Below the pieces are notes generated by a model. It did no database searches. It saw nothing but the letters and a program-made list of their open reading frames with translations, and was not told where the DNA came from. Of a DNA stretch of 64,000 nt, positions 3,715-41,597 are shown piece by piece. The first letter of the stretch is position 1; each line of letters opens with the position of its first letter. This DNA comes from Escherichia phage JSE: the sequence record EU863408. One strand, 5' to 3'. The position numbers were made by a program, and so were the translations under genes.

Positions 3715-4707
3715 TTACATGTGCTTAACGCGGTTTACCATCTCGGAGTGTTTCCCGTGGTTAAATGGACGCAGATCAACAGATCCAAGATATCCACTAA
3801 CGCGACGGATAACATTCATCTTTTCCAGATTGTCATTTCCGCAATCAGGGCAAACAAAACCAGACTCGGTCGCTCTCATTTCCTTATTAGATCCGCATAC
3901 ATGACATACATCAGAAGGAGTATTAACACCGAAGTAGTGCAATTTATCCATTGCATAGTCTACTACAGTTTCAAGACCTTTCAGGTTGTTTTTCATGTCT
4001 GGGAACTCAACATAAGAGATCATGCCACCGGACGCCAGCCAGTGATAATCTTTCTCAAAGTCGATTTTCTCAAATGGTGTGACTTTCCGGTCTACGTCAA
4101 GGTGGAATGAGTTGGTGTACCAGTCTTTATCGGTAGCACCCTTAACAATACCAAATTGCTCTCTGTCCAGTCGATTAAATCGATAGCAAAGGCTCTCGGC
4201 TGGCGTACCGTAAAGACTAAACCCAAGTCCGGTTTCGTCCTTCCATTTTTCAGTATAATGACGCAAGATCTTAAGAATATGTTTACCGTATCGCTGCGCA
4301 TCTTCCGAATCAAACGGATGAACACCAAACAGGACGCTCAATACCTCATGTAAACCAATATATCCAAGAGAGATACTAGCGCGACCATCTTTCAGCACTT
4401 CCAAAATTTCATCGTTTTGATGAATACGGAAAAATGCACCTTCTGTATACAGTACAGGAGCAACATTGGCTTTAGCCCCTTTTAAAGCGTCTACGCGACT
4501 CATAAGCGCATCAAAGCAAATAGGCATACGATTAGCTAGCTCTTGTTCGAATAGCTCAATTCTGCGCATTACAGACGCTTTACCAGCACGACGCGCGGCA
4601 ATAAGAGCAATACGCGGAAGATTCAGAGTCACAACACCCAAGTTATTACGTCCGTCTAATACTTCCTCGCCTTTCTCGTTATGCCACACACCCAGGAAAC
4701 TTCTACA
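3715..4707 (-). CDS. nrdD: Anaerobic ribonucleoside-triphosphate reductase NrdD, exon 2 (C-terminal half)
   Basis: Begins CRSFLGVW...; C-terminal RRVSGYLGS glycyl-radical motif and CHVCG...CPDCG zinc site; ORF-track ATG at 4708-4710 reinterpreted as intron 3' end. Confidence 0.8.
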   Translation of the reverse strand, partial: CRSFLGVWHNEKGEEVLDGRNNLGVVTLNLPRIALIAARRAGKASVMRRIELFEQELANRMPICFDALMSRVDALKGAKANVAPVLYTEGAFFRIHQNDEILEVLKDGRASISLGYIGLHEVLSVLFGVHPFDSEDAQRYGKHILKILRHYTEKWKDETGLGFSLYGTPAESLCYRFNRLDREQFGIVKGATDKDWYTNSFHLDVDRKVTPFEKIDFEKDYHWLASGGMISYVEFPDMKNNLKGLETVVDYAMDKLHYFGVNTPSDVCHVCGSNKEMRATESGFVCPDCGNDNLEKMNVIRRVSGYLGSVDLRPFNHGKHSEMVNRVKHM

Positions 4708-5467
4708 CATTATTTGTTCAGGGTAGGTCGCTAATCTACCCCCGCCTTTCGGCTGCTACATGTCGCCATGCAGATCAGACTATATCTTCTATCTTTCGAT
4801 AGTCTACCATTTCGGATCGCTTGATCCTACGCCGCTACATTCATCACGGCTAGTCGTTAGGCATTTCATAGCGGAACTCATATTCATAAGTATTGGTTTT
4901 TCTACCATCAAGAATTGCAGATACATTTTTACGATGCAAGCCCAATGTTTCAGAAAGACTTCTCACGCTTTTAAATGTCTGCTCTTGTCCGGTTTCTTTA
5001 TGGATCGCAGTAACCTTATATGAACGACGTTTGAACTTATAGCACCCGTTTTCGTAACCTTCTTTCGTGTTTTCGCTGTTAGTCCCCCACTCAAGGTTAG
5101 ATGCATCGTTTATAGTTTTATCGTCGTTTTTATGTTTCACATATCGATAGCCGTTAGGATTCGGAATCCAACATTCAGCCACAATAACATGAACACGCAA
5201 ACATAAAGGTTTCTTGTCTCTCCTTACCCTTACTAATGTATATCCGGTATTGTTTTCTATCCAGGTACTCAACTGTTTACCTTTAGGAGAAAACACCCGT
5301 CCATCTTTCGATACCATATATTCGGTATCACGAATTTTTCTAAGTTCCATAATATATCCTCTTATACACATTGGCGTAAAGAGAATATGACCGCTATGTT
5401 TAGCACGGGATTGTCTTCTAGAGAGTTCCCCCGTTTAGGCAGATTTTAGATGAGCTGTTTAAAGTTT
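4708..5467 (-). mobile_element. Group I self-splicing intron (T4 td/nrdD-like core) in nrdD carrying an HNH endonuclease ORF
   Basis: 760 nt between NrdD halves; 5' segment AAUCUGCCUAAACGGGGGAACUCUCUAGAAGACAAUCCCGUGCUAAA and 3' segment with AGAUAUAGUCUG resemble T4 group I intron core; exon 1 ends in U, intron ends in G. Confidence 0.75.
4850..5350 (-). CDS. Intron-encoded HNH homing endonuclease (166 aa)
   Basis: HVIVAECWIPNPNGYRYVKHKNDDKTINDASNLEWGT HNH motif; ATG 5350 with AAGAGGA RBS; located inside intron. Confidence 0.8.
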   Translation of the reverse strand: MELRKIRDTEYMVSKDGRVFSPKGKQLSTWIENNTGYTLVRVRRDKKPLCLRVHVIVAECWIPNPNGYRYVKHKNDDKTINDASNLEWGTNSENTKEGYENGCYKFKRRSYKVTAIHKETGQEQTFKSVRSLSETLGLHRKNVSAILDGRKTNTYEYEFRYEMPND

Positions 5468-6337
5468 ACCCATCGGGCTAACCGGAACACTAGATCCAGT
5501 GATGCTACGGTTATTCTTCGCAGAGATATAATCAGGGTAAAGACGCTTACTAGAACATTCCAATGCAAGTTGCTTAATGTCGTAGTTCGGATCTTCCGGT
5601 TTAAGGTTTAATCCTTCTTCTAAGAACATCACCAGCTTAGGAAACACCGGAGTTATACCGTCTTTACCTAAACCTTTAGTTCGAACTTTCAGGATCGCTT
5701 TCTGAATCAGTTTTTCTTCCCAGCTAGTACCCATACCAAAGGTTAAAGTCACAAAAGGTGTTTGACCGTTGGTAGAGAACAAAGTGTTGATCTCATATTC
5801 CAACGCCTGATATCCGTCTAACGTTTCTTTTTCTGTTTTCTCTTGTGCATAGAGAGTATCAGCTTTGATTCCGTAGGTTTCGGCATCAGCAAGGTGTTTA
5901 TGATATGTTTTCTTAACATACGGCGCTAACACCTGGTCGATGTTTGCAATTGTGGTCCCGCCATATTGATGACTTGCCACCTGTGCGATAATTTGAGCGG
6001 TTACAGCACATGCAACACCGATCGATTTAGGACTTTCGATTTGTGCGCTACCCAATTTAAAACCATTCTCTAACATGTCTTTGAGATTAACAAGACAGCA
6101 GTTAGTAAACGGCATAGCTGGTGCATAATCCATATCATGATAATGAATATCACCGTCTACATGCGCTTTATAGATGTGCTCAGGTAACACGGTTTTAGCA
6201 ATATGTTTAGACACAGCGCCAGCAATCAGATCTCGACGTGTCGGGAATGTTCGCGCGTCTTTGTTCGCGTTCTCTTTGCTTACTTCGTTTTCTTTACCCG
6301 TTGCGATCTCTGTAATGTCTTTGATTAGTTTTTCCAT
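5468..6337 (-). CDS. nrdD: Anaerobic ribonucleoside-triphosphate reductase NrdD, exon 1 (N-terminal 290 aa)
   Basis: ATG 6337 with AGGTGA RBS; ends ...VPVSPMG; ORF-track stop 5459-5461 lies inside the intron. Confidence 0.8.
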
Positions 6338-16221: not shown

Positions 16222-16240
16222 CACTTTCTAAGAAAAATTT

Positions 16241-28395: not shown

Positions 28396-28402
28396 CAACT
28401 TT

Positions 28403-29366: not shown

Positions 29367-29395
29367 CAACTTTTTTTAAAAAAAATTTTTAGGCA

Positions 29396-33900: not shown

Positions 33901-35043
33901 TTAACTATTGATCATATCAATGACGTTTTGTAGCTCTGATATGGATAGCGTTTCTGTATATCCATCTGGCATATCTTCTTTACTAACATAGAAACCTTTA
34001 TACTTTTTCTTTATTGCACATTCCATAGAAAGAGCATCATCACCGTTATCGTATTTTTTATAAAATGTCAACTCATGACGAAATATAGATTTTGAAGATT
34101 GGTTTTGTATTCTTTTTATTAATCTGTTGTTGGTTATACCAAATTTTATAGCAACCGCAACATCTTCTTTGTATAAAGTTTGTACATAAATGTATGCAGG
34201 TTTATTCCTCTTAAATCCATGATTGCTACACATAGGGCAACCGCTATTTTTTGATACGTAGTCTCCTAAGTTTGGCGTAAATTCATGTCCGCTACTACAA
34301 CGCATTACCAATTTTGTTTTTAGCATTCCTCTATACTCACCGCCAACAAAATCAACAAATGTATCACCTTTATCAATCGCCTTATCTGTTATTTCCTTTA
34401 CTACTTGCTCAGTTGACTTCTTGTTTTTACCTGAACATAGTTTACATCTAGATCCATTAACTAAAAACGAGTGACCGGATGCAGTATATTCATGTCCATT
34501 AGGGCATTTAACTAAGATATTTCTTTCATAAAAATCTTTATAATCAGACACATAGCCAATGACTTCGTGGTCTTTTTGGTTATTCCTCATCTCTGTTAGC
34601 AACTCTTCGCTATTCCAGCGTTTACCCTTAACGCAGAGACAACCATGACCTTGATAAAGATATATAAATTTCTTAGTAAAGTTTTTGTTGCAATCAGGAC
34701 AATGCATTAGTAATTCTGTCATTTGACCTGTATATCCTTTAGGAATATCGATCAATGTGTATTTTCCGCATATTGTCTTTAATGCATCATCTATTCTTTC
34801 TTTGGTCCAGCGTAAGCGACCAGTGCATTCATGACATTTTACACCCAGTCTAAGAGTATCTAAACTAAATATAGTTGACGTATGTCCTTTATCACATTTT
34901 AACTTAAATCTAGTATCCTTTGCGTTGGTGTATTCTCCGACTAGACCATACCATTCATAACAACATGGGATATGTTCTTTTACCTTCTCTAGATATACAC
35001 CGAACGGTCTAGGAACTGAATTGGGTTTTCTTTCTTTAGTCAT
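33901..35043 (-). CDS. Putative endonuclease: four tandem zinc-ribbon repeats plus C-terminal GIY-YIG-like (T5orf172-type) domain
   Basis: Repeated C-x2-C...G-H...C-x2-C units; C-terminal KPAYIYVQTLYKEDVAVAIKFGITNNRLIKRI; inserted between genes 2 and 3. Confidence 0.5.
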   Translation of the reverse strand: MTKERKPNSVPRPFGVYLEKVKEHIPCCYEWYGLVGEYTNAKDTRFKLKCDKGHTSTIFSLDTLRLGVKCHECTGRLRWTKERIDDALKTICGKYTLIDIPKGYTGQMTELLMHCPDCNKNFTKKFIYLYQGHGCLCVKGKRWNSEELLTEMRNNQKDHEVIGYVSDYKDFYERNILVKCPNGHEYTASGHSFLVNGSRCKLCSGKNKKSTEQVVKEITDKAIDKGDTFVDFVGGEYRGMLKTKLVMRCSSGHEFTPNLGDYVSKNSGCPMCSNHGFKRNKPAYIYVQTLYKEDVAVAIKFGITNNRLIKRIQNQSSKSIFRHELTFYKKYDNGDDALSMECAIKKKYKGFYVSKEDMPDGYTETLSISELQNVIDMINS

Positions 35044-35099
35044 ATTTTTATATCCTGTAAATTAAAGCGCCGTCACCAGCGGCGCTATTTTTATAATCA

Positions 35100-35922
35100 T
35101 TAAAACAATTTCCACACCTTACGAGCATCATATTTCTTGTCTTTGCTCATAAACTGGTAGGTCGGAAGATACACAACCGTGCTCCAATCTTTTGGTGCGA
35201 TCTCAATCAGTTTTGTTTGGATGTGTCCAGGCAAATATGCTTTGATCATGTGGTCTGCGCCTCTCATACCTTTAACATCACTCCATTTAATTTTTAAACG
35301 AGTTTTATTACTAAGAGTAGGTGTACTCGCGTATTGTCGCAACAACGCTTCTAAGAACTGCTGGCGAGCTTTAGGTGGCGCATAGTGCAAGTTCAAACCT
35401 AGCATAATCTCGTTTCCCGCTTTAGATGTACCAAATCCTAGACAGATAATCAAGGGGTATCGGTCAAAGAATGGCAAAGAATCCCGATATTTTGGGTTAT
35501 ACGCATAAGTATAGATCCGTCCCACTTGTGGTTTTACTACCTGATGACCTTTTACACCATCCTTGATGGTCTTCATAAACCACTCCTGTGATTTTTCTTT
35601 AGGACGACTCTTTGATACAGCACGCATAGACGCACGAAAATCATTAATCATCATCATTGCGCGTTGCTGCTTATTGAGACCCTTTGCACCTTTCCCTTTT
35701 AGTTTTTCAACTTCTATTGCTGTTTTAATTTCGCTGGCATAACGAGACATACTTTTAGTGAAAGTCGCATAGGCTATTCCCTTAGAATCTGCAAATGCTT
35801 TAGCTGTCATGCCTTTGGCTTTTGCTTTCGCAAATTCTACACCCAATTCGACCCACTGTTTAGACTTTCGTTTTTGGGGTAGACGGCTTTTCGTCTTCTG
35901 TGATTATTTCAAATACGCTCAT
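35100..35922 (-). CDS. 2: DNA end-protector protein gp2, with apparent +1 frame discontinuity near 35871..35879
   Basis: RBS-supported ATG at 35922 (AGAGGATAATATT) opens a 20-codon frame that ends at 35860; long basic ORF continues in +1 frame from 35903; corrected length ~273 aa equals T4 gp2. Confidence 0.6.
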
Positions 35923-35933
35923 AATATTATCCT

Positions 35934-36407
35934 CTATTTGTTAAGCCCTTTAAAGCCAAACACTTTCTTTAATGCATGTTCGGTGATGATCTTAAACTCC
36001 ATGTTATGCTTTTGGCATAATTTCACGGCAGCTAACCATTTTTCAGTATTTTTTGTGTATGTCCATACTTCATGCATATATCGTTGCTTTGTCTTCGCGG
36101 TCATTCTTTTTGGCTTTTCCGGTGGCCTTGTCTCTTTAGCTGGTTTAACTTCCCATAAATGCTCCTTGCCATCATCAAACTTAACGTAAAAATCCATAAA
36201 GTATCTGTGTCTTTTTCCGTCTGTTGATGACTCATAAGGAATTACTACGGTCTCAGATCCCCATTTTGCAACTCTAGGATTGCGGTCTAGCCACTGCATG
36301 ATCCATCTTTCCCAGCTTGAACGGTATGTGATCTTACGTATATCCCCTTTATACTTTTCCTTATTCTCAGGAACATACTTGCCCTTATAAGTGTTAGATC
36401 CTCCCAT
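35934..36407 (-). CDS. 4: Head completion protein gp4
   Basis: 157 aa ORF divergent from gene 53, as T4 gene 4 (150 aa); AAGGGTG RBS. Confidence 0.65.
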   Translation of the reverse strand: MGGSNTYKGKYVPENKEKYKGDIRKITYRSSWERWIMQWLDRNPRVAKWGSETVVIPYESSTDGKRHRYFMDFYVKFDDGKEHLWEVKPAKETRPPEKPKRMTAKTKQRYMHEVWTYTKNTEKWLAAVKLCQKHNMEFKIITEHALKKVFGFKGLNK

Positions 36408-39403: not shown

Positions 39404-39696
39404 TGGCTGGATTATCCTACGATAAAGCTAAAACTACAGGGCACGGAAACTACCCACCTACGGTAATTAATGCAACTCAATCTAAGGTATTTGTTGAGGG
39501 TATCCCTGTATTAGTCGAAGGAGACCCAATTACACCACACACAAAAACAACAAAGCCTTATGATACACACGGGGGAACTACGGTCGCCAGTACCCCGAAA
39601 GTATTTGTTACCGGAAAGAAAGCAATTCAAATGGCAGATCGTATTAGCTGTGGCGATACCGTCGCTATGGCATCACCGAAGGTATTCATAAAATGA
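39403..39696 (+). CDS. 5.4: PAAR-repeat spike tip protein gp5.4
   Basis: 97 aa, same length as T4 gp5.4; located between gp5 and gp6. Confidence 0.75.
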
Positions 39697-41597
39697 CAAA
39701 GCAAAAGATTACACAAATTCCTGATATTTTTAATGCTGCTACATTCGATGAAATTAAAAGCGCATTAACAGACTGGATGAGAAACCAGGAAGAATTTAAA
39801 GATTTTGATTTTAATGGTGCTGGTATTAACGTATTGATGGACTTGCTCGCATATAACACTCTGTATATTCAGCAATTCGCTAACGCCGCGCTATATGAAT
39901 CTTTTATCAGAACGGCAATTAAGCGTAGTTCAGTTGTTCAAGCCGCGCAAGATTTAGGATATTTGCCAGCAAGTAAAACTAGTGCATCGACTACAATTAT
40001 GTTGCACGTAACACATCCTCGAAATCCGGCAAGTATTCGAATCCCACGAGGAACTAAATTTATTGCAAGTGTGGATCGCCAGACGTCTTATCCGTTTGTG
40101 ACTACAGAAGACGTTGTGAGCGTTTTAGGTTCAAATGGTTTATATACGCCTATGCTTAAAGTCGCACAAGGTCGTATTGTTCGTACAGAAATGTTATTTG
40201 ATCCGAAGAAACAAATTCTGATCCGCGATCCTGATATTGACCGCGCTCAGGTTAAATTGTGGGTAGACGGTGCTGAATGGAAAGACTGGACACGAGAAAG
40301 CATTGTTAACGCAACTGGTGCAAGCAATATTTTCTATATGCGTGAAACCGTAGACGGTCATACAGAAATCTTCTTTGGTGAAGGTGAATCAACTTTATCT
40401 GCTGCTGGCGGTGCACTGGAAGCAAATTATATTGGTGGACTTAAGCCGTCAACTGGTGCTAATATTGTTATCGAATATATCAGCACTAAAGGCGCGGAAG
40501 CTAACGGATCTGTCAATTTCACATACGCGGATACATTGGCATCTATCTCTATTGTTAAAATTATTGAGAATCCGACAAATGATCGTGATTATGTCGGTGC
40601 AGATGGTGGTGGTGATCCTGAATCAATCGAACGTATCCGTGAACTTGCTCCGGTAATGCGTGAATCTCAGCGTCGTTGTGTTACTGCTTCTGACTATGAG
40701 GCTTTTGTATCTAGCCGTTTTGGTAGTATTGTTCAGGCGGTACAATGTTTCACCGACCGAGAAAAACCGGGTTATGCTTTTGTTGCTGTTAAGCCTAAAT
40801 CTGGCTTGCGTTTGACAACTGTTCAAAAAGAAGATATGCGGGATTATCTGGCAAAATATAATCTTGCCCCTATCACGCCGAGCATCATTGACCCAAACTA
40901 TCTGTATATTAAACAGAATATTAAAGTTTCCTATTCAATCAATGACTTGTCAGAATCAGAGCAGTGGTTGCGCGGTGCGGTTATTGATCAGATTGATGCA
41001 TATTATACCGACGAAGTGGAAATTTTTAACCAGACCTTTAGTAAGTCTAAAATGCTTGCTCGTATTGACAAAGCTGATGTATCTGTGATAGGTTCTAGTG
41101 CAGAAATCGAGATGGTGCGAGAGATCGACAACTTCTATAAAGCACCTATGGCTGGAATCAAGTTTTTAAACCAGTATAAGAGCGGAATCAAGTCTAGTTC
41201 ATTCAACTTCGAAAAGGACGACAAGCAATATCCGATCCATTATGTAAGTACAGAAATGAACAAAGAATCCGGTTTAGCTAAATTGCTGGTTGGACCTTTC
41301 CCTGTTGGTTCTGCAATCGCTTTACCGCACTATTCCGGCACTGATTTTGATAAAGAGGTTATCGACGGTGCGGACCTATACTTTGAGGTTGGAGAGGTTC
41401 AGCATTATGACGACCTTATTTCATGGGATCTGGGTAAACTGAATATCAATAGCGATCGCTTTACTGGTTCATATATTGAGTTGACAGCTAAACCGATTGC
41501 TGATAACATCTTTACTAAAGACGGTTCTTTGATCGTGTTTGAAAACGATCTCCGTCCTCAGTACACAACTATTAGTCTGGAGGCAATTGCTCAATGA
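39693..41597 (+). CDS. 6: Baseplate wedge protein gp6
   Basis: 634 aa; synteny and size (T4 gp6 ~660 aa). Confidence 0.8.

Follow-up and report, generated by a model that had tools for sequence, protein, structure and literature searches.

In the DNA analysed here (64,000 nucleotides of Escherichia phage JSE, record EU863408, hereafter the window), the gene that follows gene 4 has a start codon with a strong Shine–Dalgarno (SD) sequence that is out of frame with its own body, which raises the question of whether the gene is recoded, begins further inside, has been broken by mutation, or is intact in the phage and faulty only in the record. On the minus strand, gene 4 (35934-36407; head completion protein, 157 aa, assigned from its ORF and the annotation of relatives) ends with TAG at 35936-35934, directly upstream of gene 2; its product matches the Pfam TnsA-like N domain, and an identical gp4 protein is present on many contigs. 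The SD sequence of gene 2, AGAGGA (35930-35935), overlaps this stop codon 7 nt 5' of ATG 35922 and is the same in all relatives aligned (G37-3, PTE-Eco09, AV108, and RB49), and the anti-SD duplex at this ATG, at -5.8 kcal/mol, is the best of three candidate starts. Frame 0 from ATG 35922 encodes MSVFEIITEDEKPSTPKTKV and then reaches TAA at 35862-35860, forming a 20-codon ORF (35860-35922), the 5' fragment of gene 2, in which codons 1-14 are authentic gp2 and codons 15-20 (TPKTKV) are out of frame. The body of the gene (35100-35879, gp2 aa 15-273) lies in the +1 frame, which is open from 35903 through TAA at 35102-35100 and encodes ...SRLPQKRKSKQWVELGVEFAKAKAKGM..., with TTG 35846 as its earliest possible start and 35810 as its earliest ATG. 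The window therefore has no continuous ORF of about 273 aa starting at the SD-preceded ATG, as frame 0 ends after 20 codons. A previous sequence-only reading had described the SD and ATG right after the gene 4 stop, the frame 0 stop at 35860, and the long +1 ORF open from 35903 with no ATG before 35810, and the sequence reads as it claimed. An intrinsic terminator hairpin (AGCGCCG...CGGCGCT then TTT, 35064-35086, minus strand) lies 3' of gene 2, and G37-3 has an annotated terminator at the equivalent position.

The window is from an RB49-like Krischvirus (Straboviridae), with a best long match in the phage collection of 96-98%. Over gene 2 the closest genomes are G37-3, PTE-Eco09, and AV108 at 99.2-99.6% identity, with RB49 at about 85%. 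Every relative has, next after gene 4, a 273-aa gene that starts at the homologous ATG and carries the annotation gp2 DNA end protector, and in the window gene 2 immediately follows gene 4 on the minus strand, as in T4-type phages; homologues of gp2 were found in 1978 phage records. Once repaired by removal of a single base, the window gp2 matches PHROG 429, 'DNA end protector', over aa 78-271 (E 8e-70) and PHROG 32288, 'HTH', over aa 1-75 (E 4e-27), an N-terminal HTH followed by a C-terminal end-protector core, which is the same two-module layout as in T4 and RB49 gp2. The repaired protein is 56% identical across its full length to T4 gp2 (formerly genes 2 and 64), whose length of 274 aa had been given correctly beforehand, and 88% identical to RB49 gp2 (AAQ15384). 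Both share with the window the gene order (gene 4, gene 2, ... gene 3, gene 1), the SD, and the ATG, and the window differs from both in a frame broken at codon 15 by one surplus base. Phage gp2 shields injected T4 DNA ends from RecBCD (PMC3012670) and is of low abundance, perhaps two copies per T4 particle (PMC3012670); end binding and RecBCD protection by the window gp2 would be predicted from its sequence. We found no solved structure for gp2, and a literature search returned no papers on gp2 frameshifts or gp2 escape mutants.

The first residues of the 20-codon ORF identify the start of the gene. The N-terminus MSVFEIITEDEKPS is the same in the relatives and aligns with that of T4 (MAIFQIINES in T4, MSVFEIITED in the window), with M1, F4, I6, I7, and E9 conserved. 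Because this N-terminus is common to the relatives and T4, ATG 35922 is, by sequence conservation, the ancestral gp2 start, and the 20-codon ORF is the real 5' end of gene 2. Alignment with the relatives also answers which frame is conserved upstream of 35846: it is that of ATG 35922, running on as a continuous 273-aa gp2. The proposal of a true start at ATG 35922, parted from the body by one base too many, is thus upheld, both by the conservation of the N-terminus to T4 and by the 273 aa of the repaired product. A different layout, in which gp2 naturally starts at ATG 35810 (or TTG 35846) below a short ORF that encodes a leader peptide with no relation to gp2, would agree with the distant gp2 homologues (Vibrio, Ackermannviridae, and cyanophages) that are without the N-terminal ~90-115 residues, and with the invariance of Met38 between T4 and RB49 types. 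However, codons 1-14 encode the same residues with which gp2 begins in all Krischvirus relatives and show conservation with T4, PHROG 32288 spans aa 1-75 as one module, the SD sequences at 35846 and 35810 are weak or misplaced, and the close relatives all annotate and encode 273 aa. We consider a natural internal start barely conceivable, and the earlier suggestion of an internal ATG below an unrelated upstream ORF fails on the codons that the relatives use as the gp2 N-terminus.

The break itself is a single base. Alignment with G37-3, PTE-Eco09, AV108, and RB49 contains one gap, where the window reads TCT-A-CCCCAAAAACG and the others read TCT-CCCCAAAAACG. The surplus base (35880, A on the minus strand and T on the plus strand) causes a frameshift in codon 15, is private to the window genome, and sits between T and C, just 5' of the CCCCAAAAA run. 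As recorded, the minus strand reads TCTACCCC where the relatives have TCTCCCC, and with the surplus A removed positions 35883-35871 read TCTCCCCAAAAA. The C4 and A5 runs (35879-35871) are the same length in the window as in RB49, PTE-Eco09, and AV108; G37-3 has C3A6, a substitution, so three of the four relatives compared match the C4A5 of the window. Removal of one base from the run at 35871-35879 had been expected to merge the two frames, and removing one base does restore 273 aa, but the base in question is A 35880 and the run lengths are unchanged. A homopolymer error, as first envisaged, does not describe this change, which is a non-repeat A adjoining runs whose C4 and A5 lengths equal those of the relatives.

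The shorter form is found throughout the relatives. The distance from the ATG to a downstream anchor is 71 nt in the window vs 70 nt in all 15 surveyed loci, which include eight independent metagenome or run-assembly contigs carrying identical gp4. Across the site, each of the 56 close Krischvirus records of the phage collection is 1 nt shorter than the window, the whole of gene 2 is one base shorter and intact in 40 of 40 among the matches listed, and a comparison of anchor distances against four genomes also places the surplus base at this site. An intact 273-aa gp2 is encoded from the homologous ATG in the 56 phage records and in eight other contigs. Without A 35880, the window gp2 is 273 aa and 100% identical to that of PTE-Eco09, with only three synonymous nucleotide differences, so the gene has not decayed; its body in the +1 frame is 99.6% identical to aa 15-273 of G37-3 gp2 (tblastn). 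A compensating second indel was considered and rejected, as the body keeps that 99.6% identity in one frame and has the length of the relatives once the A is removed. A 29-mer of the insertion allele had no matches in IMG/VR, JGI metagenomes, or GTDB genomes, though the wild-type 29-mer also had none in IMG/VR, so these nulls carry no weight. The 236-aa and 248-aa truncated gp2 products and the neighbouring 380-aa protein had no exact match in the protein-position index. The insertion is private to the window genome and, judging by these comparisons, very recent, and it may exist only in the record.

We then asked whether the two frames could be joined during expression, as had been raised in the form of programmed +1 recoding. 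The candidate slip site is C_CCA_AAA_A (35871-35878, minus strand), at which tRNA-Lys on AAA (35874-35872) could re-pair +1 on AAA (35873-35871). If programmed +1 frameshifting (or transcriptional slippage) at CCA_AAA_A normally made full-length gp2, the re-pairing of tRNA-Lys one base forward on AAA_A would be perfect, and the product would have 273 aa and be changed only at aa 15-16 (TP for PQ). Against this, the next 0-frame codon at the slip site is ACG, which is neither a stop nor rare, reading of the sequence upstream of the site found no SD-like element that could stimulate +1 slippage, and the two-frame layout occurs in none of the 56 phage records, eight other contigs, or 15 surveyed loci. 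The relatives also differ from one another across the site at synonymous positions of a continuous frame (CGA/AGA, AAA/AAG, CCC/CCT, and ACA/ACC), which argues that a single coding frame is under selection there. The transcriptional variant is further weakened by the length of the run, since RNA polymerase does not slip efficiently on as few as five A. A -1 frameshift at the heptamer C_CCA_AAA was also considered and rejected, as it enters a dead frame that stops at 35839-35837. The arrangement does resemble the +1 frameshifting of prfB (RF2), where a short 0-frame ORF is likewise followed by a main body in the +1 frame; unlike prfB, the window layout is not conserved in relatives, and it lacks both a stop or hungry codon in frame at the shift site and an SD-like stimulator upstream. 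Lack of conservation effectively refutes programmed +1 recoding on this comparative evidence, and we regard it as highly improbable; even taken jointly with a natural internal start, it accounts for only a very small share of the probability. The break in gene 2 is, from the same comparisons, a very recent mutation or a sequence error and not a programmed frameshift.

Between these two, the first of which the earlier reading had also offered, the most likely explanation in our view, at roughly an even chance, is a genuine spontaneous mutation in which an imperfect inverted repeat led to a template switch. Template switching is the source of mutations that make quasi-palindromes more perfect, an association first observed in T4 rIIB and yeast CYC1 (PMC7202029). 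The relatives carry an imperfect inverted repeat, TCTCCCCAA ... TTGGGTGTAGA, at this locus. In the window, arm 1 (35874-35883, minus strand; TCT[A]CCCCAA, TCTACCCCAA), delimited from DNA folds and a stem statistic, contains the inserted A, reading TCTAC-CCCAA vs TCT-C-CCCAA in the relatives, and arm 2 (35836-35846, minus strand; TTGGGTGTAGA) is the same in the relatives. The complement of arm 2 is TCTACACCCAA, which predicts the inserted A, one of two bases that arm 2 specifies; only one of the two arm differences is corrected. We suggest that the nascent strand briefly copied arm 2 (35846-35836), which specifies exactly the inserted A, and that the switch would have made the hairpin more perfect while breaking the full-length frame of gene 2.

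Folding of single-stranded DNA gives -6.9 kcal/mol for the window vs -3.5 kcal/mol for the wild type, the window forming a 10-bp stem with one bulge. The test was devised post hoc, with the sequence already seen, and the loop is long (27 nt). Read with that limit, 1.0% of 3387 random non-homopolymer insertions in the window place a base in such a stem (post hoc), and the minus-strand ddG of -2.4 kcal/mol (45-nt flanks) is reached by 3.3% of 1745 random insertions (likewise post hoc). On the plus strand the ddG is +0.1, with no gain, as a competing hairpin forms. A chance fit of the inserted A to the quasi-palindrome at about 1-3%, taken with a window that is otherwise clean, tilts slightly toward a real mutation and is suggestive only. 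As in the known quasi-palindrome-templated frameshifts (Ripley 1982, T4 rIIB; E. coli thyA and lacZ reporters, PMC7202029), an imperfect repeat is present in the unmutated sequence, the added base is specified by the other arm, and complementarity rises; the window differs from those systems in its 27-nt loop, in the correction of one of two arm differences, and in being known from the record alone with statistical support. A 4-nt direct repeat, GTCT(A), at 35884-35880 and 35865-35861 was also considered as the template for the A and rejected, since repeats that short are too common by chance.

The other explanation is an error of sequencing, assembly, or editing, with the A confined to the deposited consensus and a normal 273-aa gene 2 in the phage itself; we give this a substantial probability, somewhat short of even. 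It accounts for an insertion seen in no other sequence examined and for a remainder of gene 2 without any amino acid change from PTE-Eco09, and that absence of change counts against a real mutation in that it fits a pure record error equally well. Additionally, gp2 is needed on RecBCD+ hosts (PMC3012670); because it guards DNA ends against RecBCD, selection on ordinary E. coli should act strongly against a null allele. Frame breaks in essential genes do occur among the deposited relatives, gene 6 of the Krischvirus G37-3 being implausibly split. Yet the surplus A is not a change in homopolymer length and lengthens no run, which sets it apart from the commonest type of platform error, and about 97-99% of random insertions match a templated mutation less well than the A does. 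The record does not look error-prone either: by tblastn with ~110 G37-3 proteins, gp2 is the only disruptive frame break in the 64-kb window.

Apart from A 35880, the window-private indels located from anchor distances against four genomes are few; each alters a homopolymer that lies outside coding DNA or at the end of a gene. Three concern homopolymer lengths, T5 vs T4 at 16240, T5 vs T6 at 28402, and T7A8T5 vs T6A6T4 at 29382, and each could be a natural polymorphism or a small error in the sequence. Coding DNA is where most random errors would land, so private indels confined to non-coding DNA and gene ends suggest that the record is accurate, and their pattern is as would be expected for real polymorphisms filtered by selection. 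We lean slightly toward the view that the inserted base is present in the phage DNA rather than in the record alone.

If the insertion is real, the full-length frame is broken and any gp2 activity would need low-level events. One candidate restart is TTG (35844-35846, minus strand), which lies 14 nt past the TAA of the short ORF, has a weak SD-like GGGT (duplex -4.1 kcal/mol), and opens a 248-aa ORF, gp2 without aa 1-25. The other is ATG (35808-35810, minus strand), Met38 of gp2, with an anti-SD duplex of -3.2 kcal/mol at a spacing of only 1 nt; a product begun here would lack the first helix of its N-terminal HTH module. Ribosomes might reinitiate at either after the 20-codon ORF terminates, or tRNA-Lys might occasionally slip +1 on AAA_A; slippage at C_CCA_AAA_A would then serve as a leak and not as a programmed event. 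In T4 rIIB, translation that restarts downstream of an early nonsense or frameshift mutation was reportedly described by Sarabhai and Brenner and by Napoli, Gold and Singer. Like those cases, the window has a short ORF that ends early, with an in-frame TTG and ATG within 14-50 nt; it differs in that its restart is a candidate only and its SD sequences are weak. Since gp2 may be present at only about two copies per T4 particle (PMC3012670), leaky low-level expression might suffice, and since distant homologues are without the N-terminal ~90-115 residues, the C-terminal core may work alone.

An insertion that is real in a phage viable on RecBCD+ hosts would then mean that truncated gp2 (without aa 1-25 or 1-37) works, that about 1% of +1 read-through suffices, or that the hypomorph was selected as an escape from host defence; we think this unlikely. 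For the last variant, a hypomorphic allele would evade a host defence licensed by phage DNA-end-binding proteins. Licensing of Gabija by the DNA-end binders of other phages has been proposed, though not for gp2 (PMC12407980).

In the annotation of this genome, gene 2 is best marked as frameshifted (either a pseudogene or a sequence to be verified) and not given as a 236-248-aa protein or a recoding event. A real mutation would make it a natural hypomorph of a RecBCD-evasion protein, and would add a T4-like phage as a field case of frameshifting templated by a quasi-palindrome. Either outcome would leave current understanding as it is; gene 2 is well known, and the finding is ordinary.

We also observed that gene 2 is mosaic. 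Codons 1-115 (35578-35922) are near-identical across all Krischvirus, and codons 116-273 (35100-35577) hold all ~146 nucleotide differences between the type shared by the window, G37-3, PTE-Eco09, and AV108 and the RB49 type, which suggests a recombination boundary inside the gene. Genomes of the first type have a 380-aa CapR/DUF4379 zinc-finger gene (33901-35043) after gene 2, which is absent from RB49.

Two differences private to G37-3 (MK327941) were found in the same comparisons. In its essential baseplate gene 6, a 2-nt deletion (window 41332; L005 42565-42602) yields ORFs of 549 and 96 aa, and gene 6 (window 39693-41597) is an intact 634 aa in the window, RB49, PTE-Eco09, AV108, and phiS; the split is probably an error or a mutation in the MK327941 record. 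At window 1480, near the 3' end of a small hypothetical gene, G37-3 is without 2 nt (CT of a CTTCTT repeat) and has a changed C-terminus, and the window has the state common to PTE-Eco09 and AV108.

Elsewhere in the window, nrdD, which encodes the anaerobic ribonucleotide reductase (3718-6337, minus strand), carries an insert of ~760 nt (4708-5467) after codon 290 that is absent from G37-3, PTE-Eco09, and AV108. The insert has no Rfam match at the gathering threshold; its ends resemble what we take to be a T4-type group I intron core. Within it, an ORF at 4850-5371 encodes a 173-aa HNH/I-HmuI-like homing endonuclease, and the interruption appears to be common to the window and phiS.
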